In this document: positions 1 to 33,329 of the stretch, in pieces
Position numbering within the stretch: the first letter of the stretch is position 1
Layout: every line of letters starts with the position of its first letter
From: Paecilomyces variotii
Taxonomy: Eukaryota
Assembly (NCBI GenBank): GCA_004022145.1
Contig: RCNU01000005.1
Strand: one strand, 5' to 3'
Length of the DNA stretch: 64,000 nucleotides
Made by a program: the position numbers and the translations under genes
Notes under the pieces: generated by a model
What the model saw: only the letters and a program-made list of their open reading frames with translations
Databases searched by the model: none
What the model was told of the DNA's origin: nothing

Positions 1-1338
1 GAGATCCTTGGCCATGTCCGGGTAGTGTCGCATCGCGTACATCCAGATTTGACGATAACCAGAGGATATACGTTCACCCCTGGATCCAGGCAGTCGGCGA
101 AAAGAAGTCTCCGATGTCTGGATTAGACAAGACCCGTTAGAGCGACGGGATCGAAAGCTATGGACTAGCGCGCTTCGCACGGTCAGCTGTTGCTTGTTTA
201 AAACAACCAGCCGTTTCACGGAGTTGGCACAGAGTTCCAGGTAGGAAATATCGCGGAAAAACGTATGAAGGGATGGGATGATGCCGTCGCACATTTCATG
301 GCTCCGGATCTTCTTCCATATTGCCCTACGTTCGGACCGGCTAAAGTTGGAGAAGACCTCCCCGCCGAGGATTTTCCCCTTTACCGTCGTCCGATCAACT
401 TTAGACGCACGAGGAGCGTAAAGCTGCAGGGTGTCAACGGTGTGGAGGTCAATAAGGGCCATCCGAGTGCGGTCATGGTTGACAAGGGTTGCCCAAAAAT
501 TCTTCACATGTGTCAAGTAGTGAATGAGTTCCTAAGACAATAAGTCAGGAAAAGCCTGCAGATAGCGACGAGTGCGACCAACTTCATCACACTTTAAAGC
601 CAGGACTGTGTTTAATAACCCAAGGCTCATCCCATTCCAGAGCCCGGGGATCACAAGTAACGCGTCAAATGCTGCACAGAGATGTGTTTTATCTGGGGAA
701 GTGAGCTGCCTCAGCCGCTTGGCTTTGTTCGGCGATAGTCGGGTCCACCAACGATTCTGAAAGAGCGCGTTCGCCTCCTGCTGATACTGGCGGATTTTCC
801 GGTACACTTCTCCATCAGTGGGAGCCTTTTCATTTGCATATTCATCGATGAGTGCCGTCCTTAGGTCACGGCTTATGTCTGCAAGAGAGGATTAGTATGC
901 ATTGGGAAATTACGCTTGTGAAATCAGACCATCCAGATATATGTCCACCGTCCACCACCGGTCTGAGGGAGGTAAGGTTTCCTCAGCAGCTTTCAATCTA
1001 TGTTGCCCATGGAGGCATTGTATTTGATGCCCACGAAAAAGAAGGCGGGGGTATTGCGGTGGACAAGTTTTAAGTTCTTCGGGGGTCAGGCCTGCAGCAC
1101 GGCATGCTCTGTCGAGGTGCTTCTTGGAGACAACAGCAGTCACGTGGTTTCGAATGTCAAGACGTTGGCACCCATCCTTGGCAAAGATATCACGTAATCG
1201 TTCCACGTTCTTCTGGTCAATCTCACGGCTCACGAGTGGCTGGAGGGAGATTTGGTTCAGGTCGATCTTGGCGGTGCCTTGGTACTTTAGGAGTCGTTCT
1301 ACGGTTAATCGCCGTTCGGTATCTGTCAACAAATCCAT
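1..1338 (-). CDS. DUF3723-family protein (Starship auxiliary gene), multi-exon, 3' end outside window
   Basis: ORFs 910..1353 (KYQGTAKIDL..REIDQKNVERLRDIF..CLHGQHRLKAA..WWTVDIYLD) and 532..807 (EYANEKAPTDGEVYRKIRQY..RWWTRLS..AFDALLVIPGLWNGM..LKCDE) match my recollection of DUF3723 proteins. ATG at 1338. Confidence 0.85.
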
Positions 1339-1636
1339 AGCTTTTAAGTTCACAAGTGACTTCGGCCTTTGTTTGTCGATGCTCGGAGGTTAGACAGAGC
1401 TATTTATGTTCAACTAAGTTGACATTATGTGGTACTTGCTTGTACACTTACTGGGGTCGTTGCGGGTTCAGCGCTGAAGCGCTGAAGCGCCAATTTCCCC
1501 ACACATCAGCGAATCCCTCTTTGAAAGACCTTTTTTTTTTCCATAAAGGAGGCCGCTATCCGAAACGGAACCAGGAATATTCATCATCTTGATTTCCCAT
1601 AACAGCTCATCTCTCTGATTGAAGGCATCACATACC

Positions 1637-2749
1637 ATGGACGACCGGCCACTCACACAACTTTACGCCGAGTCTTTTCAGGCTAAACGGCCAATACCCA
1701 AGTCAGTGTCCGCGCAGGAGTCTCAAGGTCAGGTTAAGCACAAACCAACCAAGGGAATAAAGCAATGGGAGAAGCAACAAAATTCTAAGAATATGCTTCT
1801 TGGCTATGCACAAGACGTGCCCCAAAGCAGCTCCCAAAGAGTGGGCCAGGCAGCTCAATCGCCCGTTATCCGGAGAGGGTCACCCTGGGACACATTGAAA
1901 GATCTTTTTACCTGTGATCTTGCAGGTCCCGTATCAATTGCCGTCCATGAAAAGGACCCGTCTAGGGTGATTGCTGTCCGTGCATTTTCCAGGAAAAAAG
2001 CAGATATATGGCTGCAGGTACTCCAGCAGACCCATCACCCCAACGTTATCTCTGCAAACGAAATCTTCAAGGACCATGGCATGACATATTTTACTATTGA
2101 TGACCTACCTCTGACTTTGGAACACCTGGTCGCCTGTGATATATTCCCGTCTGAGCTACAGCTGGCTTCTATACTTGCACAGGTACGGAATGCAGGATCA
2201 TCAAGAAAAAGGGCGCTAACCCAAAGAGGTGCTTAATGGATTATCTCACTTACTCGAAAACGGCTTTGAGCATCAATCCTTGACGTGTTCTAATATCCTC
2301 CTGGGCCAAGATGGAACTATTCAAATTGGTACAGATCGTTCCCACACCTACTCTTCCTGGTTGCTTATAGTCTCGGACAGGGGCTCTAGAGCACTGCATC
2401 GAACGTGAGCCACAACAATCTCAGGCGCAGATTCTCCGATCTTTAGCAACTATCACAATGTTTCTTATGCAGAAGTATCTGAAGCCTGATGGTGTGATTG
2501 GGATTGACGGTACCCGTTGGCAGTCTGACTCCTTGGAGTTCCTGTCAGCAACGGCATCGGTCGCAACCATCCAAGACTTAAGAAAGGTCAGCTGGACGTC
2601 TTATCTACATTAATAATCGGTATCTTACGAGCAAACAGCATTCCTTACTCACTAAGCACCGCTGGTCTGCAGGCACGCTAGTCGGGCTTGCCCGTCTCTG
2701 CCTTATCACTACACGCACGTTCATAACGAAACCATGGATCCAAAATTAA
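1637..2749 (+). CDS. Protein kinase-like protein (probable pseudokinase), multi-exon
   Basis: HHPNVISANEIF, LTLEHLV, QLASILAQ, then after a GT..CTAAC..AG intron VLNGLSHLLENGFEHQSLTCSNILLGQDGTIQI. This is kinase-fold subdomain order, but HRD is replaced by HQS and there is no DFG. Confidence 0.7.
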
Positions 2750-2918
2750 ACGAGATAGAAGACAAGGACATGTCCTGAATGTTTTTAATTACTTTGTCAA
2801 GTCGAAAGCAAGTAGTATTTCGTCAAATTTCAAACTGGTTAAATTTAAACATATTATGCAGGAAAGGAGGAACACTACGCTAAGTAGACACAGGAACAGC
2901 GAAATCAGGATGGTACGG

Positions 2919-4950
2919 TCAGAAATTGGGAAGAAACTCAGACATTTTCTCCTTTGCGATATACTCGGCATTTATTGCCAGCCATGTCTCGTCCGTTGTC
3001 TGGTCTGTCAAGGCTTCCTGGTCCGCTGCATAGGCATACGTTAGTTCCTCTTGTCTAATAAGGTCATTATCATCAGCCAGAACAACCGGGCGGAGATCAA
3101 CTGCAGGCACTCCCAGTATGATTGCCTTTACCACAGGCTCCAGTGAATGAAAAAGACGAACGCTACCCGGCCGGGTGCGCAAGACAAAGGATATAAAAAC
3201 ATTAAGTTGGCTGACACTGAAAGTATCCTTGATACTACGGGTCTGGGTTAGTTGACGAAAGGGATGTCGCCGGAGTACATACATAATGCGTATGGCATCA
3301 CCACCATGCAACAAGATACCGGCGCCCAAGCACGCTGCAAGCGTCCAACAAATTCTTCCTCGCCGCACATGATAGGTAGTGATATTGTCACGACGAGACT
3401 TTGATGGTTCCTCAGAGCAGGTGTTAAGAATTAACGTAGCAACAGAGACCCTACCCTGATTCATGTGTTTCTCCAACCACTTGTAGTTGAGATAAAATAA
3501 AGTTTGCGCTATGTGCTTCGCGAAGGGGTGAAGAACAATTTTATTGTCCTTCACGGCTTCAAGTAGTCTATAGTAACTAGCAGCCCCCTTTAGGCCCATC
3601 CACACAACAGGAAGTCCGAGTGCACTTAATGAGGAACATGTATCTGCTTCGCCGAGTCCTAGAAAGGGCTGCAGCGGTCTGAGAGGGTCTTGTGCGAGAA
3701 GTCCAGCTTCCGCTTCGAGGATTTGCGTGTTTCTACTCTGTTTGAGGAGCTCTGTGCCGTCTTCCCCAAATCTGCACAACTCTAAGCATCGGGATTTTCT
3801 CCGTCTCGGAATTTCAGGGCTCAGAGGCATGAGTGACTCTACCGTAGGGGGAGATTGAGAATAAGATGTAGATGGGGTCGGATAACATGAAGTCTTAGTA
3901 TCAGACCCAGGAGGCGTAGCAGGCCCCGTTGGTGGCATTACTAGGGACGAACAAGGGCTACCAATCGACAAAGGGGTAGCAATGGACCAATACGGCGTTA
4001 TCCTGTCAGCAGGGCTTGTCGGGGCTACCGACCGACCCACTTGGGGCGAATGGACAGAGGGAGAGGGCGTCGGATAAGTTAAAGCATCGAATATGCGAGA
4101 CGTCCCCGCTCCCATGGGTGTCGCTACATCCTCTGGGGTAGCGAATTCGGTGGTATTCCGGTCTTCCGGTAGCGCTATGATTTGATCCCATATCTGATCC
4201 AGCTCGTCGACGGCGTTAGGACGAATGTTCTCGGGGCTCGACAATGCGTGATCGCTGGTCAGCAGGGAAGGGTCAATGGAAGTAGGTGGTGTGCCGAGCG
4301 AAAGGTCTGTGTTATAGCTTCCTATGGGATCAACACATGGTTAGACTGAATAAGAGCGGAAAGTTAGAGATGGGCACAAGCCTAATAATAATCCTAGAGT
4401 GTTCACTTCAGCCTTTGTTTGGTTCTCCTGCACCCTAAAGCCTTCGATCATCTTGGCCTCCTGAAGCCACTGAAGAACCCCGACTAACTGGAACCAGCTC
4501 AGTTTCCGGATATCGTCAAAATCATCCCCGAGGACCCGGCCAAGCTATCACAAGGTAAGAATATACCCATGATTAGTTCTAGAGGACTCACCTTGCTAAG
4601 CTCCGAGTAGTCTAGAACATGAGGAACTTCCCCTAGCACTGATTGCTGTGACAGATAGTGAGCAGTCAGACAAGCCCCAGAGAAATACCGAACTCACGTC
4701 TATCGTAACCGACACATCATATGTCTTCAGACATCCATCCCGAGCATTCGATGATTGCCCAGCCTGGGTTGTTAAGATATGCCATCGAATATGGCCCCCT
4801 TTTCTCGCTCCCTCTAACACGCTCGAACTCTGTACCACGTAAAGCGATAGTAACTGTCTCAAATTCCTACCAAACCGGTTGACCAACTTGACTAGCGTGA
4901 GTATCCACTTCAATGAAGGTTAAGGGTAATCTACTGACATCAGAGCAAGT
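2919..4950 (-). CDS. Hypothetical protein with S/T/P-rich central region; 5' exons uncertain
   Basis: 441-aa ORF 2919..4244 plus upstream coding-like segments (4596..4913) separated by intron-like sequence. No family recognised. Confidence 0.55.
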
Positions 4951-5478
4951 GTCCTCATCCAAACTAAGCACCTCCGTCGGATGAATCTGCGAGATGTGAG
5001 CGGTTTGGAACCACGGAAGAGGGTGCACTTACAGGAAGGCAGAAAGAAAGAGATGGCATTTCAGCGGGCCAGCCGCAGAGAGTGGGATAATTAAAAGAGA
5101 AGAGCGGTGGGTCGCGACTAATTTAGCAGAGGCTATTACGGAAGTGATGCTCGGTCGGGAAAAAAGGGAGAGCATCGTGGAAAGAGGGGGGAAGTAACTT
5201 GTATTTATATGGAGGAGCAGCCACAATCGGCCTCAGAAAGTTGAGTACTGTAAAGATGGGCAGAATGGCTAAAGATGTTAAAGAAAGAGAGCGTTGGGAG
5301 CAGAATCAATGGTCTTTTGTCGAGAAATCGTGGCCCTTGGCCCTGGGTTTGAGGGCTTGCTTGCGTTAGCCCCACCGTTATAGTGCCATCATTGATCGGT
5401 TCCTGCAGATCCAGGCTCAGGCACATTTCCGTATTAAAACAAAAATAACAGATCCTTCCCCCATATTCCGTTTGGGCA

Positions 5479-5900
5479 CACAGTTGAACGGGGTTCAAAA
5501 AAAGCTTGGCGGTGCTCAACACGGAATCCGGAAAAACCTGAGCGGGGTTCAAGAGGCGGTGGCAGAATCCCAGACATTTTGAACCCCATTCAAAATATGC
5601 ATAGTAGATTTTTGAGCCCCATTTAGACTATTTTCTACCCAATTTAAAAATTTGTAAAATTTAATAAATAAAAACAGATAATATATCCTTTACTATTTAA
5701 TATATACAGTATATAAACGTTAATATAATATAGTTTTATTTGCCAAGACTTTATATCTATTGAACGGGGTTCAAAAATACAAGTTTGACCCCCGTTGAGC
5801 CTATACATGGAAAAACTTGAATGGGGTTCAGAGGCGGTGACAGGGGCGGTGGCAGAACTTTGAGCACCGCCGAGATTTTTTTGGACCCCGTTCAACTGTG
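5479..5900. mobile_element. MITE-like element with ~40-bp terminal inverted repeats and AT-rich core
   Basis: CACAGTTGAACGGGGTTCAAAAAAAGCTTGGCGGTGCTCA (5479-5518) pairs with TGAGCACCGCCGAGATTTTTTTGGACCCCGTTCAACTGTG (5861-5900). Internal GGGGTTCA and GGCGGTGGCAGAA repeats. No clear TSD. Confidence 0.75.
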
Positions 5901-5974
5901 ACCCGATTCTGTTTCCTTCTCTCCACATAACTGCTGCCTGAGTCATACAGTATCTAGAGGCAACCAATCGTTAC

Positions 5975-6185
5975 TCTTCCCTCTTTTTTTTCTTTCTTTT
6001 TTTTTCCTTCTCTAACCTTCATTTTATTTTGCTCTTACTCTGGGCTTTTTTCTTTCTCTCTTTGCCTTTCTTTCCTTTGTTTTCCCTTTGTTCTAAAATG
6101 AAAGAATTAAAAAAAAAAAGGGAAAGAAAAAAAAAAGAAAGAAAGAAAAAAAAGTTGAGAGAAGAAAGGAATGGATAAAAAAGGC
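5975..6185. repeat. Low-complexity pyrimidine tract followed by purine tract
   Basis: T/C-rich run (~5975-6093) followed by an A/G-rich run (~6095-6183), just downstream of the ferric reductase gene. Confidence 0.8.
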
Positions 6186-6268
6186 TTTGAAGGCATCCAC
6201 TGTGGCAAGAAGTTCCATTTCTGTTGATCCGGAAATGCCCCCAACAGCCTCAACTCGGCTTGTTGACG

Positions 6269-8011
6269 TTAATCAGTGCTGGGCTGATACTCTAATTCTG
6301 AGAGCTTTACGCCCTCGTGCAGGCACTCTCGTACAACGTTCTGTATGTGATCCCGAAGGTCGTCTGTTGTAGAGACTAGCCAGGACGGTCAATACGTATC
6401 TCACATGGGAATTAGGAACCTTACCCATCACTAGTGTCCGACCTTGCTCATCCCAAATGTTGGGCAGTCTCTCAACCTGGTCGCCGGATGCCTCGACAGA
6501 AATGATGCTTTGGTAATCAGGCACTTCCTGATAAATATAAACTCGCTTATGTCTGCCAAATGGTAATCCATTCTGCTCAATACCGTCGCTGACGTAAATC
6601 GAAATATGCAGTATCTAAAATGATGGTTAGTGTCAACCATAGATGAAATCTCCGAACATCGATCGAATACTAACATAGCCATCATCCATGATATCATCCT
6701 TCAGGAGGTTATTGATAAGAGACAATGCGGGGGTCATCTGGTCAACAGATTCTACCTGCCATACCAAATGTAGCCGGCGAACCTGGGAGGTGCAGGTGTT
6801 GTAACTGTGGATCATTTTCTTTAGGCATGGAATGGCCGCGGCGATCCCAGGTCCGCTGGCCAACACTAGAATGTTCTCATAGTCGCTAGCTTCCTCACTC
6901 ACTCCATGAGGACCAGTAAACAAAGCTAGGAAAGAGACCGAGCTCCCCGCAGCAGCAGGGGCATAGCGAAGAAGATCCGCAGTGAAACCACTGCGTGGCT
7001 TTACCAGAAGCTCCACAGTATCTTGCTTGCCTTTGGACCACGATGTAACCATGAGAGGGTGAGTCTGCATCCACGAACATAGACTGACTGAGGGCATCCA
7101 GAGGTTGATATACTGTCCCGCTTCTACTTTCACTGGTCGAGGCAACAAAACGCGAATGTGGACAGCGTTGGCCACAGGGCCTTCTTTAGATTCGCTTGCG
7201 CTGAATGACACGATAGCCCTGGGAGTACCACGGCCTGCGAAGAGACCGTTATAATATAGGAGGGTTATAAGCTCTAAGACTAAAGTCAACACAAAAGTTC
7301 CCAGCGCAATTAAGAGGTATATTTTTGAAGAAGTGCTCTGTGATGGGAGATGCTGCCAAGCCCCGTAGGCGAAGAGACCGGCGAGAATCTGATGTCCTCG
7401 AAGAAAGATCTCGTAGGACCAGTGACGACACCAAGGAATCGAATGCAGGGCAAGGGCGCCCAGGGAGGCCGCAGCCTATCAGAGGTTAGTTATAGCGAAG
7501 TGGCGGGTGCAAATAGGTATACAATCATAGCACAAAGATTTTGCTGTTCGCGGAGTGGAAATGTAAAGCCCTGGCCATGAACTACTGTAACAATGTGAAA
7601 TGATAGCAGGGCAACAGCCATCCAGCTAGTAGCACGATGGATCTTTCGACAGGAGTTCCATTTGATACCAAGGAGGTCCGCCAGGTAGGCTAGGTGGATA
7701 GTTGATAAAGGGAAAACCAAGTTCACCAGAGCCAGCTCTCCAGCCCGGCGGCCAGCGCCAGTCAACGACGTGATTCTGAATGAGACAAGGAAAACGTTAA
7801 TTGCAGCATATGATAAATGGAGCAACATATCAGCTCCGGTCCATGGACCCAAGAACCGATGCCTACGAATGACGAAGAATAGCGTCAGATGTTGAGACAC
7901 AACGAGAGAGAACAAATGTCTACAACTGGCCAGGAGAGAGACGGCGCGCACTAAGAAAAGTACAGCAAAAATACCGCCAGCGGTAATAGCATAAATGGCT
8001 AATGGATCCAT
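6269..8011 (-). CDS. Ferric reductase / NADPH oxidase-like transmembrane flavoprotein (FRE), multi-exon
   Basis: Hydrophobic N-terminus with His residues (KIHRAT, SFHIV), AGQYINLWMP, WMQTHPLMVTSW (FAD-binding HPF-like), GPHG, LASGPGIAAAIP (NAD-binding), RRLHLVWQV, and C-terminal ELEYQP. Confidence 0.85.
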
Positions 8012-8303
8012 TCTTTGAATATGAAAGACAGTTAAAGAAACAAGGAAGTATCGATAAGGGAAGGAAAGCATGCAAGCAGACAGCCTTTATAGTACATGAA
8101 ACTACATGTATAGATAAGGACAACCCGCGCTGAAGTACTCTGAAGGAAGACGCCATCAGTAGACAAACGAGAGCTTCTTATATAAGTTCCAGTCAATTAG
8201 TATGGACATATTCCAAGGCAAAAATACTTAAGAACCCTCGATCGCACGACTTCTGAGGCCCGAGAAAAGCATACTATACGGTACTACGTTTGCGAAGCCC
8301 GAA

Positions 8304-18860: not shown

Positions 18861-21317
18861 AAACTATCAAAACCTCATCGAACCTATCAGTTACCCATCA
18901 AGAACCCCCTCTAACCTCCTGCTAAGACCAGAAGCATTAATGGGGGTATACATGCGGGGAAGGGGTACCCAGGCCCTCACAGGAAAAGGGAAATGTACAA
19001 GAACAAGCAAAAGAAAAGAGAAATAAATAGTTACTTACCTACTGGTGCAGAGCGGACCTTTCCAACACAGCTGTCACCCAATTAATCCGCCCTCGGATTA
19101 GCGCTATCATACGAGGGCTACCTGTACCAGCCTCCTCCACAGCATTCAGCACCTGGAGGGGACTGATTAACAGGCCCTCGAGACCCTCTTCGTCAAGCAG
19201 GGCTATATCTTCCCGGGTCGACCGGATGGTGAGTCCGGCCGCGTGCAACGCCTGAAGGTAACCCGCAGGATATGTCATTTTTGCGATATCTACAGAAAGG
19301 CTATACGCCCGCGAGAGTGGGATAAAGCAACTATTTATATATGTATTGAATACCACTACTGACAAGCGAGGCGACCCCTGATCATCTAACACTGCCAGAT
19401 AGGGAAGGAAGTATCAGTGAATACAATGTCATTTGCCGCTTCTTCTCTTACAAATTATCCTACATCAAGTTTAACCACATAGCTTCTCGTCCTTATACTA
19501 TCTTTGTCCTAGCATATCCTCATTTTCTGTCATTTTGTGGCTTTATTCATATATGGCGAAGAAAAGTGGAGAAAATAAACATGAAAGGGTGTTTTAGGTA
19601 GTTATACCATCGGCTGGTTTCTTATATCGTCCTGCTAGCCGGTAGCTCATAAAACTGCTGTAGACCATTGTGCAGCCGCGCTTCAGCTTTCGCAGCTGCA
19701 CAGCCCGTCCACCATCGGGAGCAGATACCTATGGAAGGATATGTCACTGGATCTCGATAATGGTTGTAGTTGTACGCTGAGGAACGACGACCATTACAGC
19801 GCTCGCACCGAAGAGGCCCGGCTGTTATCCTCGTTTCAGTCGCTGGATAGAAAGGCTGGTCCCGCTCAGTTGGCAGCCTCGTGATGCTCTGTTTGTGTTC
19901 CTGTGTCTCCCAGGTAGTCGCGCAAGTTTTGTCTGTGGTACTGACAGCTGCATTTGAGGGAAGTAGAGATTTGCGCCTGAATTTTCCAAGTTAATGCTTC
20001 ATCGAAACCGTACAGGAAGTGACGGATTATACCTGCACCGAACCCAGAGCCATATACCATAAAAGAAGTGCATTGGTTAGGACAATCTAGATGATGAACC
20101 AGCACGTAAGATTGGCCTTTGACACAAGTGAATCTTGTTTTGAATTCAAAGTATGGGTTTTGTTTCAAATATAATCTTTAAGACACCTAGCACGGCAAGG
20201 CATAGCTGAAACAATTATCTATGGCCAAAAATATATTCCAAGATATGCAATAGGAGACAAGGGCGCTTCATGGTAGAGTGTTATAAATTATCTTAGGTAT
20301 CTGACCGGGCTGATATGATAGATCATCGGCGAGGTTAATATTTTTTGTTACATATGGCTGGAAAGTGCACGTAGATTTGCTCAGCTAACCATGAAGCCTA
20401 AAAAGTCATCATTCTTGCTGTTTAACCAACAGTGATTTAGTTAAATACAGATCTGAGATACTTGAATATTGGATCGTCAGGCTGAAATTGAACAGGTCAA
20501 CTTGGCCTGCCGTACCTGAAGCATTCAGTATCACGATTGGATGTATAGGTGACATTATAACGTGCAAACCTCAATAGTGTAGCATATTTCCAGGATTTGC
20601 TGAACCCTTCTCAGGATTGTGATATACTGAACATTCATAAAAGTTCCAAGTTTAATATAAATTTTCTGGTAAACTCAACCCCACCCTCATAGTTCTAGCG
20701 TGAAACCTAGCCAGGCATTCAGTAGGCACCAACCAGTTCCTCGTCCAGGCTTTGTCCCAGTATGCCATCCTTCTGCTTTTATCAAGGCCTGGATCATTGT
20801 TGTGGCCCTAAGGAAGAACCAAGTGTTGATCAATCAGTATCGGACTCAACTATTGGCTGACCGCAAGCCAACTGCGTTGGAATTCCCCACCACACTGTGC
20901 CATTAGCATGAGATTTAGACGAACGTCCCACTCAACAAAGGGTTTCATTGCAACAAGTTAACTGATTGGAGTGTCCATTGGGAGCTTTTCGGTGGAGCGT
21001 CCATGCGCAGCACTGGTACAGGGAATAATAAAGTACCAAAAAAGGTAGGAATCTGATATGAATGATGATCCACAAATGAATGACATGGGGCCAAGACATC
21101 CAATAAGTGAATAGATTGCGGTCGAGCAAAGAGCTCACTGCAAAAAAGGACCAAAAATGTCCACTGTCCTGTCGTATGTACCATACAGGCTTATTGGTCA
21201 TGGCAAGTAAGTGGAGCTATCAAATCACCGATGAATTGTTGGCCTCAACCACTATAACCAACTATAACCAACGCCGGTGAACGCAGTCGCCCAAGACTGA
21301 ACTTTACGAAAGCCACC

Positions 21318-22655
21318 ATGAGTGCCAAATACCCATATCATCCTCCATTTAAAAAATTTATAATCTCAACACCATATTTATCAAGAAATACTACTTCAGC
21401 ATATCAGCAAACACAGTGCCACATTCTCCCCCGCATTCCTGTCCCGATGAGGGCCAAAAAGCAGAGACAGCCTTTACAAAGAGCGACTGTGATCAAAACG
21501 GCCCAAGTTAAGCCAAAAGATTCACTTGGGTCCTTGGATAGAGGCGTCCTTATCAAAATACAGAAATGCCTAAGTCGAGCTCGCCATAAGAGTACCACCG
21601 AGTCAGAAGCCAAAGCCGCCCTTTTCGTTGCCCAGAAGCTGATGGCCCCATATAATGTCTCCCAAGCGGATCTAGTGACCAACAGTGATTATGGAAGCAA
21701 AGCTCAATATGGAGGAGTGAGCAAGGTGGAAATAATCAACGTTAAGAACCGTACCAGACGTGTGATTAAGAAGGCATTTGTGCACAAGTCGGCAAAGGCT
21801 ATGTGTACGTTCTTTGATTGCCAATGTTTTTCGACGGACTACGAAACATCCATTGCTTGGTCATTTTTTGGTATAGCGGAAAACACGGTCACAGCGGCAA
21901 TAGCGTTCGAAATGGCGCACAATAAGATCCTGGACTGGGCATGCTCCTATAAGGGCGGTTCGGCCACGTTCAGCTACCGCGTCGGAGTCGCTGATGGGCT
22001 CGTCTCCATGGCCAACTGTGAGAAGAAAATCGAACTCGAGGCGGCAAGAAAGAAAGAGTTAGATATAATAGCCGCCAAGGAACGGAAAGCGGGTATGGAA
22101 CGCGAGCGCAAACTTCAGAGGCTCCATAAAGGACCTTCACTGGCGTTAGACATTGGTGAATCAGATGGCCAGTCAGAGGACGAAATGCCTGGCTTCTTGG
22201 ACATAGACAGCATGTCCGACGAGTCTTACGGCTCTCCAGAGTCGATAGACAATCTCAATCTTAATACTAGAGGAGCACTGGCCGACTTTAATGAGAATGA
22301 TGAGAATGTGGTCGATCTCACGCGCAGCGTGGAAGTCAACGTTGACAAAATTATCAAGCGGGAGTCGCGCGAAACCCATGATTTTAACAGCATCCCTTCC
22401 CTTTCGGTGAAGCAGAACCCTTCAGATAACGATTCCTCGTCTGTTAAAAGCGAGGATATGTCGAACTCGCCGTGGATGTCCGAAACGCAGCTAGTACGTT
22501 TTCGCGCCACATCGGTGCAGGTTGCAGACGAATACCTCAATATCAAGCTGCGTATGGGAAAGACACGCACAGTGGTCACCCGCAATTACTCTGCTTATCG
22601 AGAAGGGTGGAAAGATAGTGAAAAGATTGATTTCCGTCCGCGCAGGTTGGAATAA
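21318..22655 (+). CDS. DUF2786-domain protein, intronless (true start may be 21447)
   Basis: IKIQKCLSRARHKSTTESEAKAALFVAQKLMAPYNVSQADL resembles the DUF2786 helical motif. It is followed by FFGIAENTVTAAIAFEM, SYRVGVADGL, a coiled coil, an acidic region and AYREGWKDSEKID. Confidence 0.75.
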   Translation: MSAKYPYHPPFKKFIISTPYLSRNTTSAYQQTQCHILPRIPVPMRAKKQRQPLQRATVIKTAQVKPKDSLGSLDRGVLIKIQKCLSRARHKSTTESEAKAALFVAQKLMAPYNVSQADLVTNSDYGSKAQYGGVSKVEIINVKNRTRRVIKKAFVHKSAKAMCTFFDCQCFSTDYETSIAWSFFGIAENTVTAAIAFEMAHNKILDWACSYKGGSATFSYRVGVADGLVSMANCEKKIELEAARKKELDIIAAKERKAGMERERKLQRLHKGPSLALDIGESDGQSEDEMPGFLDIDSMSDESYGSPESIDNLNLNTRGALADFNENDENVVDLTRSVEVNVDKIIKRESRETHDFNSIPSLSVKQNPSDNDSSSVKSEDMSNSPWMSETQLVRFRATSVQVADEYLNIKLRMGKTRTVVTRNYSAYREGWKDSEKIDFRPRRLE

Positions 22656-23619
22656 TCGTACATATTGAGCCCTCTGATCTGTGCCTTACCCAGCCAGAGT
22701 TCCAGCTCGTTAAATTCTCCTGTCCAGACTCTGGTGAGTTCCCTTTGCCATCATACTCGGATGTGTCAGTATGCGGCCGTTCCATACAGAATAAACAACA
22801 ATAGAATATGCAATGGTTGGTACACAGTCTCTGTTCTCCATAGACATCTTCGCTAGGAAGCTATGGTATTTTACCTTCAGTGACTGGCGACACCCGCAGG
22901 ATTGAGTAGTGCAGTAACCGGTTAATAGCTTTTCGCTTCTCCACTGAATTATTACAGGCGTGAGTTACGCTATATGCCCAATATATCACTACTGGATGGG
23001 AGCAATTAATGCTGCTTGTGGACTGATGTGGGGGATTGTAGGCAAATTAGATTCTAGTGAGAAAAGCTGTGGCTCAAAAGACTGGGATCAAAAAGCAGGC
23101 AAACAATCGCTTTCAAACAAGCTAACATTTTCCCTCCGTTGGTGCATCAACGTTGTACTTTAGCCCCATAATCCATATTACGTGAGAGTAAGACATAGTT
23201 CCCAGCTAGAATGAAAGGGATAGGAACGAAAGCTGTGTGAATGAAGTGCATCTGCGATGGGTTCTCGAGGGATCCGCTCACCTCCCGGTGGCATAAATTG
23301 TGATCGATTATTAATTCCCTTTCGTATACTCCAATAACATTCAGAAGTGCACATGATGTGGAGCCAAGTCAACAGTGCGGTAGTGATGGATCTATTGCAG
23401 CGTATAAAAAGGGATGGTACAGGTGCAGACACAACGAGTTGTTCCCATTAAACTAATATGGCTGGCACAACTAAATGAGGCTAGTAACATAAAATTCAAG
23501 ATATAAAAGCACTCAACTAACACTGTCGAACATCAAACTCTTCCAATCTTTGATACTCACACAAGAATTTTCTAAATCAATTCACGGCTACCGGTGGCGC
23601 ACTCCTTTGTTTCTCAAAT

Positions 23620-23999
23620 ATGCACAATAGATCGCCGTGCGCTCACACTCCAACCCAGGGTAAGTAGTATGGCTCCTCACCTTCCCCTTCAATGCTAAAT
23701 CGGTCATGACTATTATAGCGCCTTGCCTCACACAACGCATTCCAGAGCTGCTTGAGCAAGCGTATCGCGAAGCTTATCAATCTCACCAGCTCAATCGGGA
23801 AACTCTCGCGTGCAATGAACAACTAAACCGCGAATTGTCGAAGGTTCACAATGAAAACAGAGACTTACAGGCAAGGAATCAACGGCTTGAGTCCCAAAAT
23901 AGGGTGTTGATGTGGCAAATACAAAACCTCGAATGCCAGCCGATGCGCCTGCAACTTTCTTCCCATAGCGCCACTCCGGAAAAGGGGAAGTCGGCATAA
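23620..23999 (+). CDS. Small coiled-coil hypothetical protein, probably two exons
   Basis: ATG at 23620, GTAAGT..CTAA..TAG intron, heptad-like LNRELSKVHNENRDLQARNQRLESQNRVL. Confidence 0.45.
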
Positions 24000-25038
24000 T
24001 ATCATCTTTCAAGGTGCTTTTCTCAGACGGTCTTAGTGGAAGTAGCACAAGTCTAGTGATATTATAATATTCACATCAAGGCTCCCATTTCAACTATGAA
24101 TTCCAAAGCTATCAATCTATTCTAGGGCCACCTTCCAATGGTTGCTGTAGAGTAAACCCTCTGAGCATCCAACTTCAGAAGTGGTGACTGGGCTGTACTG
24201 GTTCAGATATTTCAAGACTACATGGTCATCTGTGTTGCTGTACTTAGCTCCCAGGGAAGAAGCGCCAATAAGGAGATATTATTATCTACACAGTAGAATA
24301 GCTTGCTTCTTATTATATGCATACCGCGGCGTACGAGATCTCTCAAGGAAAATGATTCGTAAATACCTTGAACAGAGAGTAAGGTTGCACGGCACAGAGT
24401 TTCAACCTTTCGTGAGAACAAAGGACCAGTTTCCGAATCTCAGGTGGAGAGGCGGGCGGGTAGACCCAACGAATGATTGAATCTCCCATTGATTACCTGC
24501 CCTCCAGAACCAATGCCTCTTTCCAACGTAACCCACTTGCTCCGCCGTCATTATGTACACGCTTTGCAGATCATCAATGTACTCCATGATCCTTTGAATA
24601 GCGTGCATTTCATGGGTCTATGGTCAGCTACAATTTATTCCAGTCCCGGGGCCACCTCACGATTTCTATGTGAACTCCATTTGCCAGATCTAGCTCTTTG
24701 TCTATGTCTGCTTATTACTAAGCCGTCCTGTTGCCAATGACATTCGGCGTTCTCGGTCCACCCACCCCATGTTGCCTTGCAACGAACTACCACATTCAAA
24801 AATCATCGATAAACAAGGGTCTCATTCCACTCTTGACAATAGTGTCAACAAACTCGCCATCGAGCGGGCGCGAACTGGTCGTACTTTCTCACCTTGGACC
24901 CAGAGTCTGCATGTCCCGTACGGTAAACTCAGATATTTAAAAGTCCAGTTGTCTGAAGGGACTCTTCCACACTCAACCAATCCCGATAGATCGGAAATGT
25001 GCACGACCTTCCACGACCAATTCATACGCCCTGCCCGT

Positions 25039-25940
25039 GATGGACATATTATCTCTATTGAATAAAGACGATGATCGCAATCCTTTCAACCCTCCCTCTA
25101 CCAGCCAGCAACGGCCGACCAGTAAGAGGAGGGATGCATTTCAGGGATGCAATCATGGCGTTTTCCCATCGTACCATACAAGTCTAGTGTCCCAAAGCGT
25201 GGCATCCATGCCTTCATCAGTACTATCTGATGTCAATTGGTCAGAGGCGTCTCGTGTTGCTGTTTTGTCTGAAATGCCCCGCCGATCTACCACAACGAGC
25301 AATGTGTGCGCAGTACATTCAAGGTGGTGGATCTCAGGAGTAACCTGCCGTCCCGCGGATGATGCTGCCATTATCTATCTATCTGAATCTATCCGGGGAT
25401 CTCCTAGAATAGCTATCCAGCTGGCTTTAGGACGAGGTTATAGGTTCACAGTCAGGAGAAGAGACATGCTGCATGGATATCAACCAGAAAGGTCCTGCTT
25501 GAACTGCCACTATGTGGAATACAACTTGAGGAGGGCAAGGTAGCAGTTAGTCAGCCATGCAACCCAGAGACCCTAAATGCTAACTATCGAGCAGATATCA
25601 AGGGTCCTCATTGAACACTACTCGGAAGGGGCTTGGCCCGAAGGCCTCCATTATCATTCCTCCGCCACGACAAGTTCGGCTTGGGGACACATTCTACTTT
25701 CCTCTGGTTCTCCAGGCTCGTGAAGATACTATTGAGTTGTCTGCGAGGCTGAAGATTGATGATATCGATTCCTCCTTGGACTTTAGCAAGACCCTGATAT
25801 TCCAAAAAACTTTCTTCCTTTTGACTCCTCTGGTGTTAAACCGAGCGGGGATTTGGAGCATCGTAATCTGCATTCAGAGTCAGGCTGAATCATTTTTCAT
25901 GAGTTTCGACGTTCATGTTGTGAATTTCAGCCCTGTGTAG
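25039..25940 (+). CDS. Hypothetical protein, probably two exons
   Basis: Adjacent same-strand ORFs (MDILSLLN..; ..IIIPPPRQVRLGDTFYFPLVL..) separated by a GT..GCTAAC..CAG intron-like segment near 25540-25594. Confidence 0.45.
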
Positions 25941-25962
25941 TACAGTACAACACAGCCTCTAG

Positions 25963-27458
25963 GACATGGCGTGATTTGGGGTGTTATGCGAGGGAGGTCC
26001 TAACGGTTCAAAATACTCGTCGTTTTACGCTAGGCTTTACATTATGTGAGCCCAACATGCGACTCTGGGAGTTCGACCGTGTCGGGGCAATGGCGTCGTC
26101 CTCTTTCGACATCAACAAGGATGGGCTCCAATTTGTTTCGGCCATGCTGGGTTTTCTTACGATGAACGATGAACAGTTAGGGTATGACCCAAGCATCATT
26201 TCTACATCTGACGAAAAAAAAGCTACATTGAGATTCAACGCGATGGACATTGCGAGCGTCTTATCCTTGAAGGGCTGATGAAGAGATCTGCATGCGTTGC
26301 TGGCAGAGCTACAACTTGCTGGAAAGCCCGTCGCGAAGGAGACAAGACAAATTCACCACTTGTTATCAAAGATTAATGGCAATATCCAAAGAGAGAAGGA
26401 GAGTGGAAACTTTTACAGGAAGCGACGGAGAAAGAGGTGGTTAATGTAACCAGATATTACTATCATGAACCGTTCGGGTGAATAGAGAAATCGACAATAT
26501 TCGCAACAATGTTCGGAAGAAGTTAGATGTAACGGAGTCCACGAACTTTTGACCAATGCGATATGAGCTGCTCTCAGCTGCAAGTGGCACAGCGGGAATA
26601 GAAAGAGCCGGTCGCTCCACAAGCACGACCAGCCAGAAAAGGTCATCTAGCCAAGCCGACGCAATACTACCGCCAAAGAAACGCCCTTGCCCAAGCTCGC
26701 CTTCCAAAGGTGTGCGTGATGCCAATATACAGGATAGGGTACATCGTCGATTTATTGTCGAAGATTATGACATACCCATATATAGAGCAAGCTCACGCGT
26801 CTCGCTACTACATGCACTTGAGAATTGCATAGAAGGTATGAGTTTTGTTCATGTGCTATAGTTCATCACTAATTATTGAAGGATATCAATCTTTGCATAT
26901 GAAAGCAGGGCTTTTACAGGGTGACATCTCGACTGGCAACCTGATCTTGAATGAAGACGTAGGGAATCCGTCATGGTCAGCGTTCCTCATCGACCTGGAT
27001 CTATCTATCGAGGAGCAACGAGAACGAGCATCTGGAGCTAGAGGGAAGACAGGAACGAGGGCATTCATGGCAATAGGTCTACTTCTGGGAGAGCAACATT
27101 TATTCAGGCATGACCTCGAATCTTTCTTTTGGGTACTCTTCTGGATATGTATTCACTACAACGGTCCAGACCAAGGGGTTGGGCCAACTGACTTAGATTG
27201 TTGGAACTATGAGGATGATGGAAAGCTGGCTCGATCTAAGCAAGGTATAGTTGCTGGCGAAGAGGATTTTCTTAAAATTGCAAGTGAACTGTTCTCACCA
27301 TACTATCAAGCATTGGTTCCTTGGGTCAATAGGTTACGCTGAGTGGTACAGTATTCCCGGGGGGTATGCGGAGAAAGAATGACGATACGCATCTTTATGG
27401 TCAGATGAAAAATACCCTTCAGGAAGCGGTTAGTGATCCGAAAGTGTTAGCACCATAG
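25963..27458 (+). pseudogene. Fungal-type protein kinase (FunK1 / Pkinase_fungal) pseudogene, 5'-truncated
   Basis: RRFTLGFTLC..MRLWEFDRVG, LGYDPSI, VAGRATTCWKA, LVIKD*WQYP (stop at 26374), LLQGDISTGNL, FLIDLDLS, TGTRAFMAIGLL, HDLESFFWVLFWICI. Frameshift at an A-run near 26215. Confidence 0.88.
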
Positions 27459-28325
27459 GTAATATTTAATCAGCGAGGCATTATCATTTAGTAAAATAAT
27501 ACAGTTTTAACATTTTCATATTCAGATAGAATCAATGTGCTAGCTTATCAGCTTCTTTTCCATAAGCAATGTCCGTACTACTGCTGAACATTTTCTTAGT
27601 CATTCGAAAAACCCAGTGCTCAACCAAGCCACTAACTAACCTTTAAAGAGGACGCTAGATGTGTCAAAAGTTAGGCTTGACAATACCCATACACAGTATC
27701 TAGAAAACGTAATACAACCCGTAACAGAAATTTACAACCTGTATTTTTGGCACGTGAATTTCTTGTAACGTAATGCATGTTTTGTGGCGGTGCAATATTT
27801 TGTATTGGGAGGAAATATTATATACTGTAATATATTCATGTAAAGCATTCAGTCAAATGTGTTTCACTCCATTATGAAGTTGGTATCCAATGGAATCTTA
27901 CTTTACTCATAGGCCAGGTCAGATCCCATAGATTAAACAGTGTCATTTTTTATATGTACAGTATATTGGCCCGTCTTACTGGACTGTGTTATGCTTCCTA
28001 TTATTCCTTAGGCACTAGCTGTTTAAGTGCCTCGATTCTAACGCACCTGTTCGTGCTTCAGAGTACTTATCACGCATAGAGCATTAGCGCTTTCCCTTAG
28101 CATTATTTCAACTCTTTTCAAGCCCAGGGGAGAGTTCGGTGTCAATGTTATTGTATCTGCTTTCAGTTACTCAATACGTCTCCATTAGCAAAGCAAAACT
28201 TTATATACTAGGCGACAACTCTAGCGGCCACCAACACTACAAATCTTGTAAATGAAACTTGGTTTAAACAGCAAGCTTGTTCACCTATAAAGGTAATTAT
28301 ATACAATCTATCCATTTATATACTC

Positions 28326-31300
28326 TCACATAGGCTTCAATCGGGTCGAACGCCGCGATGGCGGTCGTATGACGGACCAACGTTTCCGAAGGGAAATCGC
28401 AGACCGAGCTGGGAATCGCTTTTGAAAGGCTGACGTTACCGCTTCGAGAGTCGCCAACTTCCGCATGAGTGTCTTCAGTAACTTGTCCTCTTCTTGACTG
28501 TAAGGCCTAGTTTTCCGACCTGAGGTTTGGAAGTCCGTAGATCTCTGGCAAGCCTTGGCCGCTTGCTCCTTAGCTTTAGCTCTTGTTATAGGCCCTGTTA
28601 GTCCCACGGCCTCCTTTATCCTGTCTTCGATAACATGCATATCTGAAGAGCTTTGCGTTGTGAAATCCGCTTCCTCTATTAGCTTCGATTCGTAGTTTGT
28701 CAAACTTAGTGCTGGCTTATCGTTCAGAGAAGTCGGAGACGGTGGAGCGTGTTCAATGGTTATGTTGTCCGTCTCTGGTACAGCCACACCTTGAGAATCC
28801 ACACCTCCTAGGGCTAGGTCTGCGAAGGGCTGTTGAAGCGGAGTATTACCCTCGATCTTCTCAGTAGCATAGTTGCTTTCCACATGCACCCCTGGACTGC
28901 GTGCATAGGGCTGTTCAGTTTCCTCACCCGGCTGGCACAAGAGAGCAGACGGCGTCTCTAGAATTCGTGGGTCGATGGGAACCACACCGAAAGTGGAGCT
29001 TGTTATTGAAGGGCTTGAGCAGCCGCTCAAGCCATCGGTACGATCAGGTGTGTCAAATGTGGCCGATCGAGCCTTCTGGCTGTTTTGGCTTACAACAGGC
29101 AAATCCAAGTTCCGGCAGTCAATAACGGCTTGCCAAGCCATTCCTTTAAGGCTCTCTTGATCCTTATCTTTCTCCTGAGCAGGGACAGACGTGATAGCCC
29201 TCGGACGCATTGCGGGGGGTTCCCAGAAAGTAATCTTCAGTTCTTTCGTATTAGTAGATGATGGTACGGAAGGTTTTTTGCCTTGCTTGCGCGGGCGTTT
29301 CTGCTGCATACAATGATCTCTGTCTGAAGTAGACTCCTCGTCCTGCATCGAGGACAATCGTTTCTTGTAGGCCTTCTTGGATCGCACACAAATGGTTTTG
29401 TGGTAATGGTGCACATCGCGAAGGTGTCGGCGGTAGTCCTGTTCCTCGGTAGCAATGTGGTTACAGGAAGGGTCAGCGCATTCCGATGGCCATGATTTCC
29501 GATCAACATGCTCCTCAAGATGCTCTCTCAGCTCTGGGCTTCGGTCAAAAGCTCTCATCCTGCAGGCCGCAGGAAGCCGGTCATCCCACATGCATTCAAT
29601 ACAGTATCCGGCACGGATGGTGGTATGGCGATACACCATCACCTCGTAGTGTTGGCTGGTCATCGAGGGGAGGTGTCCCGCACAATGCTCCTCAAACTCA
29701 GCACTCTTTCCATCATGGAAGGTGTAGCATTCCCAGCAATACTTGATCTGTTGAAGAGGAATGTGCAAGTTTCGAGCAGATTCTCGTTGAATACAAGAAT
29801 GGATGTGCCTGCTCCGCAAGGGCTTTTCCATGCTGTGGCATGTTAGTGGAGGATCAATATAGGGAAACAGTGGGCGGCTCACGGTTCCAATAATTTACGA
29901 CAGCTAGCAACGGGGCATCGCTTTTCCACAGGCTCCTCGCCCGGACGATAGACCACGTCAAAATCACGAAGACATTGGGTAAAGAGATCCTTCACCACAC
30001 TGGCTTTTTCGTCAAAAGAAAGTGGCTCGTTGGATGACATGACCGCCGCTAAACGGCCTAATTCAGGCATGAGCTTGCACAGCGCCTGCTTTTCTGCACT
30101 CTGCTCAATATGATCCGGGCGTTCGCGGCCCCTGGTCAGGATTTTCCAGTCCCGACGACTCTGGACCCATTGACTCTGGTATTTCTGCAACCTGCTCGAA
30201 GAGATCCTTCTCTTAAGGACGCTATATTCGCGCTTTGCTCTTCTGATGTCATCATCTGACTGTGCTTGCTGAATTTTCGCGGCTTTGGCGACCAAACACG
30301 GGTCTTCATCGACCTTCTCTTCCTCTTCTGTAGGTAACCGGCGAGGGAGGCCATTCTCGTGAAATCGGTCGTAGCCTTGAAAGTAGTCAATGTGAGTATG
30401 ATCTGCGGCTCGGCCTCGTAGAGCATTGAACACATCCACGCCGGAACAGTTGGCAAGATAGTCATTTCCGTACGTAGCTTTAGACCTATGCGTAAGAATT
30501 TGAGCCACGAGAGCCGAGGAGTATTTATCTGCGCGATAATTTAGCTAAGCTCTCATATCAGGTGAAAGAAAAGCATGAACCAACCTTGGACAGCTTTTCC
30601 TAGCTCGCGGCGCATCGCATGTACCGTTGCAGTAACAAAGTAGCCAGCATTGACAAGGATATTACGTAGACCCTCTTGATATCTCTCCTTAGTCAACGGC
30701 TCCTCACTAACCTTTTCGGCTGTGACGCGCCTTACAATACATCGGTCTTTGGCTTCATCATTCCATCTAAGGACCAGTTCGTCTTCTCCTTCGGGGATTC
30801 TTTGCTCAAAAATCTCCTCTGGCTTGGAGAACCCAAAGAGAGCATTATCTGCAAGAGCTAGTGCTAGGAGGAACAAGGCTCCTGAGTAGATAGGTTCATT
30901 GCAGTCCCAAATAGCAGTACCAAAGCTGTTCTCGTTAATGACCATTCCAAAGCTGGTGATGGTGATAGCTACATACACTGTATTCTCGGGGTCTTTGTTG
31001 TTCTTGACATACTGTTGGTCAAGCCGCCATCCGACCCTCCAAGGAGCATCATCGGTACGAAACAATACAAGCTCAATATTCTGGCTACTGTCAGCATTTG
31101 GAAGCTGAAGTGCAGGCATATTGGAATCCGTACTTTGTAACGAAGCCCCCGTCCGGCTCTGTCTGCTGATGCAGGTGTGAAAGAGGACACTCTGGCACCC
31201 GTGCATAGGAACTGAAGAGTAATGAAGTGAAATTGGACACGATACCTTCCAGGCATGAAGAATGGATCATCTGTTGCCCAGAAAGCGATCATGGCTCGCT

Positions 31301-31915
31301 CAAAGCTCGAAAGCTTGAAAGTGTGCTTCGGCCTTTTGATCACTGATAGGAACCCCTCTTGAACTAGATCATGCTCTATCCACTGCAATGATCAGATACA
31401 TGGCCCTCGAAAGGTGAATCTAACTCACGCTGTAGAGATCGGCCCGGTCATGGGGGGAAATCTCGTTCCCTGTCAGAAAATAGAAGCCTGGGACGAACTC
31501 TTGAGCCCAAATCAAAGTCGTGTCCTTGGTCGGTCGTCCATTTGGAGCAAGTCTGCCGTTAGTAGACTCAACATGCCACCGGATAAACTCTTTGAGTTCC
31601 TCTAGTGTTGGCGCCGGATGCCCATCTCCAACCTTATGGTCTTCAGGCATATCTTTCTCCTCCTGAAGAAATCTAACGAAGTCATGGTGAGAAGAACGAC
31701 TCCCTCTTAGAGTATATAGAAACTTACTCCTCATACCTCCGCACTTTCCCTGCATATCTCTTTTTCGTTTTTGGCGAAGCTCTACCCCTTGTCCTTTGGG
31801 CATCTTTCTGTTGATGAGCTTTCGCCTCATAGCCTCGCTGTTTACGGAGTTCACGGCGAGCTTTTCTTTTCTTTTCATCCTGCTCGGCCTTCAATGAAGA
31901 AGAGCGTATAGCCAT
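28326..31915 (-). CDS. Starship captain: DUF3435 tyrosine recombinase with C2H2-like zinc fingers and a C-terminal Myb/SANT-like domain (about 7 exons, roughly 1,090 aa)
   Basis: Candidate catalytic residues in order: CTGAR (R), YVKNNKD (K), TVHAMRR (HxxR), QILTH (H), GNDY (Y). Also FLLALALADNAL and VVYRPGEEP..CPV. Canonical introns (e.g. 31727-31673, 29882-29833) join the ORFs in frame. Confidence 0.92.
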
Positions 31916-32475
31916 TATCAACCGCTGAAATGTAGCTAAATAAATGAGTTTAGAAAGAGTACGAGAGAAACGATTGTAGAAGGCTGATGGGAAATGAGAT
32001 GAAAGTGAAATTGTCCTGGGCGAGTAGGGCATATTTATATTCGCAATTGAAGTGCGATACCTTTAGTTCCTTTTTAGCAATGACCCCTCATCACTTGCGC
32101 CAAATGCTGATCGAAGCTTCTTAGTGTCAGACATAGTGTGCGGTGACTGAAAAAGATTCCAGCTCTTGTCTTCGTGATGCCCTCAGATACATGCGGGTTG
32201 GATAGACTGGATCAATTAGTTTGTACACGGTTTAGAGAGCTTCTGTTGGTCACGTGAGTGATGACACAGAGAGGACTGGCATTGCCCCGGGATCACTCAC
32301 TGAGTTGAGCCAAAGCAATCCGGGAGCGACCGGAGCTGCGGTGCGTGCTCACTGAGCAATCAGTGAGTGGCCCGGAGCGAACACGGAGCACTCACGTGCT
32401 GCCCTCACAAAAGCGGCGGCATCCGAATCGGGTAACAGGACCCAACTCGCAGCAAAACAGTTCACTTATACACTA

Positions 32476-33246
32476 GTAAATGATGGATTACAAGCTCGCC
32501 AGGCGCTTCTTCCAAACAGCTCCGTATCGCCGCGGTTGGATACCATCAGGCTTCCAAATGTCGATCTTATCAGTCCCGAATTCGTTGATTCAATCATCAA
32601 ACACCATATCCCGCCTGGGGGTTTACAACTTCGAGATGCTACAGACAGCTCTGCTGCGAAGCTTTTGATGACCCCGATGCGGGATGCGGACATCAGAGGG
32701 CCGGCACTACGAGATGCTCATTCCAAAGCTGGCTCTTACCTAGCCTGGAGATTTCTGGCCGACCTCATTGGTCTTGAGGAAGTCACTATCCGCCATGTTC
32801 AAGGCAACAACACCATAGGTCACCGACTCCGTGGAGAAGAGAAGACGCTGATTGTGGCGTTGATGCGCGGCGGCGAGTCCATGGCTTTCGGCATCAACGA
32901 AGTCTTCCCGAAAGCTCAATTCTTGCATGCCAAAGAGCCGAATGATATCAAGCGACACCATCTGGAGGACAACGTAACCGTTATTCTGGTCGACTCTGTC
33001 ATTAACAATGGCAATACAGTTGTGAAGTTCGTGGAGTCCATCCGAGCCATCCATGCAATGATTCGCATCTTTGTTGTTGCTGGTGTAGTCCAGGACAAGG
33101 CAGTCTCGGGGTGTGGTCCCCTCAAGGCACTTGCGCGGACTGCTGAAATTACAGTGGTAGCTCTTCGACTTTCTAAGAACAAGTACACGGGTAGCGGTGG
33201 AACTGATACAGGCAATCGCTTGTTCAACACGGCTTACTTACCCTGA
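32476..33246 (+). pseudogene. 3' remnant of a uracil phosphoribosyltransferase-domain gene, 5'-truncated at the Starship junction
   Basis: LIVALMRGGESMAFG, VILVDSVINNG (PRPP-binding loop), GGTDTGNRLFNT. The frame extends upstream through NDGLQARQALLP with no in-frame ATG between the junction and the ORF's TTG start. Confidence 0.75.
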
Positions 33247-33329
33247 AGCTAGTATGGACGACTTATGTTTGTTGCTTCAGTGCTTGGGGATGAACTTTTC
33301 TGTCGTGTTTTGAGAAAGGATGATTGTTC

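Follow-up and report, generated by a model that had tools for sequence, protein, structure and literature searches.

An intact, transcribed Starship-captain-type recombinase gene of Paecilomyces variotii that also encodes zinc fingers and a Myb/SANT-like domain

We analysed a 64,000-nucleotide (nt) stretch of the Paecilomyces variotii genome (assembly GCA_004022145.1, contig RCNU01000005.1; the window hereafter), and in it a minus-strand gene at 28326..31915 whose product resembles the captains of fungal Starship elements. The gene is intact and transcribed, and its zinc-finger and Myb-like tail lies in one spliced mRNA with the recombinase. A first-pass annotation, made from the letters alone, had described it as an apparently intact Starship captain with a fused tail. 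Intactness and fusion are borne out, and the status of captain is likely but not proven.

The coding region consists of seven exons and six introns of 46-56 nt, and specifies 1092 amino acids (aa) followed by a stop. Between 31915 and 28326 the minus strand shows open frames in succession, with short GT..AG intervals between them, and inspection of the sequence places the ATG at 31915-31913 and the stop at 28328-28326. Exon borders were chosen by eye and the exons joined by their coordinates, which yields 3279 nt (1092 codons) with a terminal stop only, as the first-pass annotation had claimed for the frame after intron removal. The product aligns without gaps to a 1092-aa protein of Aspergillus caelatus (1009 of 1092 residues identical) and, again without gaps, to an A. 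alliaceus homologue. Exon 1 (31728..31915; this and all further features of the gene are on the minus strand) encodes residues 1-62 and two bases of codon 63, exon 2 (31429..31672) extends to residue 144, and exon 3 (31134..31382) to residue 227. They are followed by exon 4 (30977..31080), exon 5 (30585..30925) and exon 6 (29883..30528), and the last, exon 7 (28326..29832), encodes most of the fingers, a linker and the Myb-like end. The last intron (29833..29882; GTGAGC..CTAAC..CAG) is 50 nt long and in phase 2; if it is retained, the frame meets a TGA one codon on.

A search for sequencing runs that contain the region listed 20 from 13 studies, none of them recorded as RNA, and four runs (X14, X15, X16 and X23) were compared with the window between 19001 and 35500. 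In X15, a single 3304-nt contig of depth 130 lacks all six coding introns and an intron in the 5' leader, and the joints 29832/29883, 30528/30585, 30925/30977, 31080/31134, 31382/31429 and 31672/31728 fall on exactly the predicted bases. X16, from a different study, has the identical seven joints, with the last intron skipped at depth 8.2. The leader intron is 125 nt long (31936..32060; joint 31935/32061 in both runs), and the leader exon beyond it reaches at least 100 nt upstream of 32061 (X16 contig, side 100). An X14 contig carries the region in one unspliced piece with all introns kept. We read X15 and X16 as RNA because seven GT..AG intervals are missing and the contigs of neighbouring genes are spliced as well, a combination that is hard to explain otherwise. 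The proposal that the intron at 29882-29833 joins the recombinase in frame to an exon of ~500 aa is thus confirmed in two runs, whose joints, together with the open frame, reveal neither a separately transcribed last exon nor a stop in the spliced coding sequence.

Pfam family DUF3435 (PF11917) matches the pieces encoded by exon 5 (33.8 bits) and exon 6 (29.7 bits) above the curated cut-off of 25.8, and a 92%-identical homologue (P0002) scores 98 bits. The candidate catalytic residues stand in the order R-K-H-R-H-Y that the first-pass annotation had reported: R208 (31193-31191, exon 3), K253 (31005-31003, exon 4), H364 and R367 (30621-30610, exon 5), and H389 (30490-30488) and Y399 (30460-30458) in exon 6; they were assigned from the known pattern of the family, R-K-H-R-(H/W)-Y (see also PMC8092012), rather than by structural superposition. 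Among the rows of a 26-sequence alignment that have no gap at the site, R208 is R in 17 of 17, H364 is H in 23 of 24, R367 is R in 21 of 24 and Y399 is Y in 23 of 24, and K253 is invariant in all eight of the closest full-length proteins. The AlphaFold model of the 92%-identical homologue is confident over residues 1-370 and 440-745. Compared as a whole by Foldseek, it has top matches that nearly all belong to the tyrosine-recombinase fold, though at weak E values of 0.012-0.4: Ndc10, Cre (probability 1.00), the Tn1549 integrase, Flp, XerA, lambda integrase and integron Int; neither the full-length model nor that of the Myb-like end finds a match at E ≤ 0.001. The Pfam matches and the conserved residues support the assignment of the protein to the DUF3435 (Crypton-like) tyrosine recombinases, with the catalytic residues in order.

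Four predicted Cys/His fingers lie at residues 580-732 (29409..29917, including the last intron). The first, C580-x4-C585..H600/H602/C604 (C-x4-C-x14-H-x-H-x-C), is split by the last intron, with C580 and C585 (29917-29900) in exon 6 and H600, H602 and C604 in exon 7. C580 and C585 are the sole invariant columns of the 26-sequence alignment. Finger 2 (C623-x2-C626-x13-H640-x3-H644) has an x13 spacing, finger 3 (C668-x2-C671-x23-H695-x3-H699) has a 23-residue loop, and finger 4 (C709-x4-C714-x12-H727-x4-H732) has the exact C-x2-4-C-x12-H-x3-5-H spacing. The two finger motifs singled out earlier, CWEC..HC..H and CADPSC..H.RDVH, correspond to fingers 2 and 4, and all other coordinates and motifs of the first-pass annotation were likewise found in the sequence. 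The finger block has a predicted local distance difference test score (pLDDT) of 86-93 in the model of the homologue, and a profile built from 18 aligned tails matches YY1 (E 1.4e-3) and Zif268 (E ~0.04) over the fingers.

A predicted disordered linker of ~290 aa follows (approximately residues 745-1032; 28509..29372), with poorly conserved alignment columns and pLDDT values of 24-48 over residues 745-1031 in the homologue model. It leads to a Myb/SANT-like three-helix domain at residues 1033-1080 (28365..28508), where the first-pass annotation had recognised a terminal Myb-like domain by its RPYSQEEDKLL motif. AlphaFold 2, run on the last 100 aa, predicts helices at positions 45-57, 61-71 and 77-87 with pLDDT ~90. 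The 18-tail profile matches the Myb repeats of Trichomonas vaginalis MYB21 (E 9.9e-5) and c-Myb R1 (E 0.019), and Pfam Myb_DNA-bind_6 appears, at E values up to 1, in 7 of the 18 aligned tails (best 0.0011). By VIA, this end is closest in fold to Myb, GARP, SANT and homeodomains (Z 5.2-7.3), led by the PHR2 MYB domain (7.3), ARR1 (6.4) and c-Myb R1 (5.5, 24% identity), with homeodomains scoring alike. Pfam finds no chromodomain in the tail, and the Myb-like domain occupies that position. Sub-threshold Pfam rows for IFT57 and DehI on the tail were set aside as spurious.

Position 32477 is the candidate 5' end of the element; it lies upstream of the leader and 562 bp before the ATG, with no other gene between it and the ATG. 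It is placed by the divergence of X14, a run labelled as coming from another organism, which over the 13,477 bases of 19001..32477 differs from the window by 15 substitutions and 2 indels (~99.9% identity), carries unlike sequence beyond 32477 and has depth 0 over 32751-35500. Two further X14 contigs contain 47-70-nt pieces that are 90-95% like 32339-32436, as if related ends were present there. Between the leader and the candidate end, at 32254..32395, four copies of the heptamer CACTCAC/GTGAGTG form a cluster in which they are arranged as short inverted repeats and may be protein-binding sites. Four of the seven copies in the window fall within these 142 bp; 6.7 are expected window-wide, and the motif was picked post hoc. 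No second copy of the 17-nt end sequence occurs at up to 3 mismatches, the metagenome contigs contain no exact copy of the 31-nt one, and a repeated site of the Enterprise type, RGGTAG, was not seen at 32477.

Starship-type accessory genes lie on the cargo side, within 1..8086. A DUF3723 gene occupies positions 1-1389 of the minus strand in three consecutive frames (Pfam positions 1-352; E 3e-63, 2e-40 and 5e-29), and since it crosses the left edge of the window, the element is longer than the window shows. A ferric reductase gene with Ferric_reduct, FAD_binding_8 and NAD_binding_6 domains is at 6273-8086, also on the minus strand; ferric reductases are among the gene classes commonly listed as Starship accessory genes. 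A DUF2786/DUF7168 gene and a fungal-specific kinase gene are on the captain's reading side as well, spliced or expressed in X15. The inward-reading gene near a candidate end, together with the DUF3723 and ferric reductase cargo, looks like the setting of a captain.

So, is the gene a Starship captain? We give a probability of about 75% to the reading that this locus encodes, in one 1092-aa chain at the probable 5' end of an element, a captain-type DUF3435 recombinase and two further DNA-binding modules. The Starship-like element would span at least 32 kb and include DUF3723, ferric-reductase and fungal-kinase genes, with the captain reading into it from that end. Four C2H2-like fingers would sit directly behind the catalytic domain, and the Myb/SANT-like domain at the end of a flexible linker. 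The recombinase would cut and rejoin the element ends by means of Y399, the fingers beside the catalytic core may read core or target DNA, and the tethered Myb-like domain may hold a second, distant site, such as the subterminal repeats, or chromatin. Comparable arrangements would be Harbinger transposases, which have a separate Myb-like partner, and Kirc, the captain of Enterprise in Podospora, which has a chromodomain in the matching position. The first-pass proposals that the element may still be active, and that the fused module may guide end or target recognition or regulate cargo, are both inferences.

Several observations weigh against this reading. The position of H389 is H in 8 and Q in 16 of 24 relatives. 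Structure prediction, which the first-pass annotation had suggested as a check, returned the three-helix end and the fingers with confidence and the segment 374-436, which holds H389 and Y399, at pLDDT <50 in the homologue model. The Foldseek matches of the full-length model are weak, with E values of 0.012-0.9 and modest template modelling (TM) scores, and those of the Myb model have E values of at least 0.6 at a root-mean-square deviation of ~2 Å over ~48 columns. According to the VIA tool, Z values of 5-7 are in a range common for small helical domains. Pfam scores on the window's protein are below threshold for Myb_DNA-binding (14.5 versus 22.9 bits, E 0.043) and Myb_DNA-bind_6 (13.1 versus 24.4 bits), for which reason we call the domain Myb/SANT-like and not a Pfam member, and the Pfam scan of this protein yields no zinc-finger (zf-C2H2) match. 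X15 and X16 carry an RNA label that was itself guessed, so that the case for RNA comes from their spliced contigs, and the raw RNA reads of X23 include none on the captain gene. The element end rests on a single run, X14; no terminal inverted repeat was found, in that none of 51 inverted pairs in 1-40000 involves 32.0-32.5 kb; the far end is outside the window, as the DUF3723 gene runs off base 1; and neither an empty site nor a second element end was seen. A UPRT-like gene at 32564-33559 (plus strand), to the right of the candidate end and expressed in X15, has a best database match of 76%, with none from close relatives of the captain's hosts, and was dropped as a marker of the core genome on account of that best match. 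The flank to the right of 32477 may itself be accessory DNA, and the break could be a rearrangement between two accessory regions.

These points also bear on the leading alternative, in our view unlikely, that the gene is intact and expressed yet immobile, being either a solo or domesticated DUF3435 gene or a captain whose element has lost its far end. The missing terminal inverted repeat, empty site and second end would suit such a gene, as would the conservation of full-length relatives across many Aspergillus species and the steady, fairly high depth in X15. Against immobility stand the at least 13.5 kb that include the gene at ~99.9% identity in a run labelled as another organism and break 562 bp upstream of the ATG, and the DUF3723 and ferric reductase genes on the cargo side. 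The relatives of the protein point the same way. One A. cristatus protein sequence is present in duplicate identical copies under two locus tags, two paralogues lie on a single A. uvarum contig, and other relatives are pseudogenised with up to 7 stops; decayed copies of this kind are expected of a transposon family.

Among the 20 listed homologues, nine have annotations as fused models of ~1050-1100 aa. Aspergillus members have a Myb-like C-terminus, as do two Fusarium proteins (UniRef name 'Myb-like domain-containing'), and a 33%-identical relative from Colletotrichum incanum (P0168) has a chromodomain there. The last exon is complete in 11 of the metagenome loci, and six of these (L014, L015, L017, L018, L020 and L032) have, in place of the Myb-like domain, a conserved basic repeat tail with two P-R/K-I/V-x-L-R-like copies. 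A HMMER search with the last exon returned 272 cluster representatives at E ≤ 1e-3. Many begin at the fingers and have a length of 350-480 aa, and DUF3435 was found upstream in 10 of the 33 representatives scanned. The short stand-alone tail entries are mostly open reading frame (ORF) calls from nameless sources (Logan, ENA, JGI), and one cluster joins a short ORF, the 1096-aa A. cristatus protein and two adjacent models of A. chevalieri. The latter, ACHE_70720A and ACHE_70721A (P0170 and P0171), are pieces of a single captain, 344 aa from its N-terminus and 449 aa from its C-terminus; the C-terminal model, 48% identical to the present protein, is named 'SANT/Myb-like DNA-binding domain-containing protein' at NCBI. 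Stand-alone forms of the tail are thus largely an outcome of annotation. Through split annotation, and through entries that consist of the last-exon ORF, separate MYB/SANT genes near captains could be counted too often.

The position of the last intron is shared far more widely. A scan of metagenome contigs, with a smaller and less diverse alignment as query, recovered 53 relatives at 26-54% identity, of which 23 cover the junction on both sides. The frame is interrupted there in all 23, and an uninterrupted frame across the intron position occurs in none of them. Twelve change frame at the junction, and the other 11 are single tblastn matches. The latter were considered as intron-less genes and rejected as such: all carry a stop and a short insertion of 6-22 residues, and each is read as having an in-frame intron or as a decayed copy. 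A phase-2 GT..AG intron of 46-66 nt restores the frame in 13 of the 23 loci; in the other 10, modelling failed or was doubtful (six without the motif pair, three with no solution and one phase-0 intron with a poor donor). Intron positions at residues 144, 227, 262 and 375 also coincide with breaks in the metagenome matches. Distant relatives share the order of the domains, and because they have the last intron at the matching place, the unit of recombinase and finger is, by this comparison, ancient, and its fusion is old rather than recent.

Captains with fused DNA-binding domains have already been described, and the present gene is a good example of them, not a new type. The novelty that the first-pass annotation implied was overstated, with both a finger-bearing captain, Kirc (PMC8092012), and DUF3435/MYB hybrids (PMC12256816) in print. 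DUF3435/MYB hybrid genes are listed for Starship-like regions, including Starship-Aory1, in the accessible parts of O'Donnell et al. (2025, PMC12256816), and like these hybrids of Aspergillus and Penicillium Starships, the present gene combines a captain domain and a Myb/SANT-like domain. In those parts of the paper, the hybrids take up a table entry and one sentence, whereas here the transcript, the split finger and the intron are detailed. Transcript evidence, a split finger and a conserved intron were not found in the accessible text of PMC12256816, PMC11162782 or PMC13562431, a literature search combining Starship with zinc finger, Myb or SANT returned no paper with these terms in its title, and the name Starship-Aory1 occurs neither in the main text nor in one supplement of PMC9156397. 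According to the available sections of PMC12256816, captain and MYB/SANT classes may carry the C2H2 signature IPR013087, and the hybrid class is defined without it.

The same sections describe MYB/SANT genes at the element edge opposite the captain, compare the arrangement with Harbinger and propose that the MYB/SANT partner recruits the enzyme to the element ends. The present gene resembles both systems, as far as their descriptions go, in tying a Myb-type DNA binder to a transposase, and differs in having the Myb-like domain within the recombinase chain. Kirc, as described by Vogan et al. (2021, PMC8092012), is the first ORF of its element and combines a recombinase with a zinc finger in the middle and a chromodomain at the C-terminus. 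The present gene is similar in the layout of a recombinase with a core-binding domain, a central finger region and a small C-terminal reader domain, and may be alike in position too, given the candidate element end. Where Kirc has its chromodomain, the present protein carries a Myb/SANT-like domain, tethered by a long disordered linker; the C. incanum protein, Kirc-like and the nearest chromodomain-bearing relative found, gives only a hint as to the captain family of the present gene. For HhpA of Hephaestus, a DUF3435 captain, the abstract of Urquhart et al. (2023) reports experimental evidence of transposition, whereas the evidence for the present gene is from sequence and transcripts. As to how Starship captains locate their own ends and choose their targets, domains beyond DUF3435 are flagged as clues to site choice in the starfish paper (Gluck-Thaler and Vogan 2024, PMC11162782). 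The present gene is expressed, with defined borders for its additional domains and a candidate end that carries short repeats, so that binding and truncation tests can be designed.

The variety of C-termini suggests a more elaborate scheme, which we consider quite improbable as a whole. In it, captains of this clade would consist of a fixed core of recombinase and fingers and an exchangeable C-terminal 'address' module. This module would be Myb/SANT-like in the present protein and in Fusarium, a chromodomain where the protein resembles Kirc, and the basic repeat tail in many relatives from soil. The two-gene arrangement of captain and MYB/SANT protein would have its fused counterpart in the hybrid. 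The Myb-like domain, on its tether of 290 aa, would bind the subterminal GTGAGTG/CACTCAC copies as arm-type sites, just as the arm-binding domain of lambda integrase binds its own arm-type sites. The last intron, in turn, could be a splicing switch, because a retained phase-2 intron meets a stop one codon after the exon, and would select between the full captain and a tail-less, possibly inhibitory form. Intron retention acts as a comparable switch in the P element. An intron-retaining form may exist beside the spliced main form as a minor product, since contigs drop rare variants. It is highly improbable that the locus instead comprises a ~591-aa recombinase gene, closed by the TGA in the intron, and next to it an independent ~500-aa zinc-finger/Myb gene with its ATG at 29831: the stop and the ATG are both present, many database entries of 350-480 aa begin at the finger block and A. 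chevalieri is annotated in this manner, but spliced contigs from two studies join the exons in frame and contradict it as the main form, the short entries are mostly ORF calls from nameless sources and the A. chevalieri pair equals the N- and C-terminal portions of the 1096-aa A. cristatus protein, a Met at the site of the ATG is missing in A. affinis and A. uvarum, and the invariant pair C580/C585 would lose its partners.

Returning to the surroundings of the captain-type gene, the plus-strand neighbours at 23540-27342 are expressed and spliced in X15, with introns at 23659-23717, 25546-25594 and 26832-26877. The latter two lie in the fungal-specific kinase gene (Pkinase_fungal), which is tail to tail with the captain gene. 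Within this region, 26296-26342 is matched at 90-95% identity over ~30-47 nt by 48 partial raw RNA reads of X23 (26296-26327) and one X14 contig, and is probably a conserved stretch of paralogous kinases. Deeper in the putative cargo, foldbacks resembling miniature inverted-repeat transposable elements (~370-410 bp, with internal inverted arms) occur at 9140-9552 and 18317-18676; they are 79-82% alike and enclose ~9 kb. An open frame at 16916-17380 (minus strand) has a weak homeodomain-like match to HTH_32 (E 7e-6, below cut-off) and is possibly the remnant of a small DNA transposon within the cargo. To the right of the candidate end, a minus-strand gene at 35636-39315 combines NACHT/NPHP3_N and WD40 domains and is of the NOD-like receptor (NLR) type, with 123-132-nt tandem WD40 units that are up to 86% alike.

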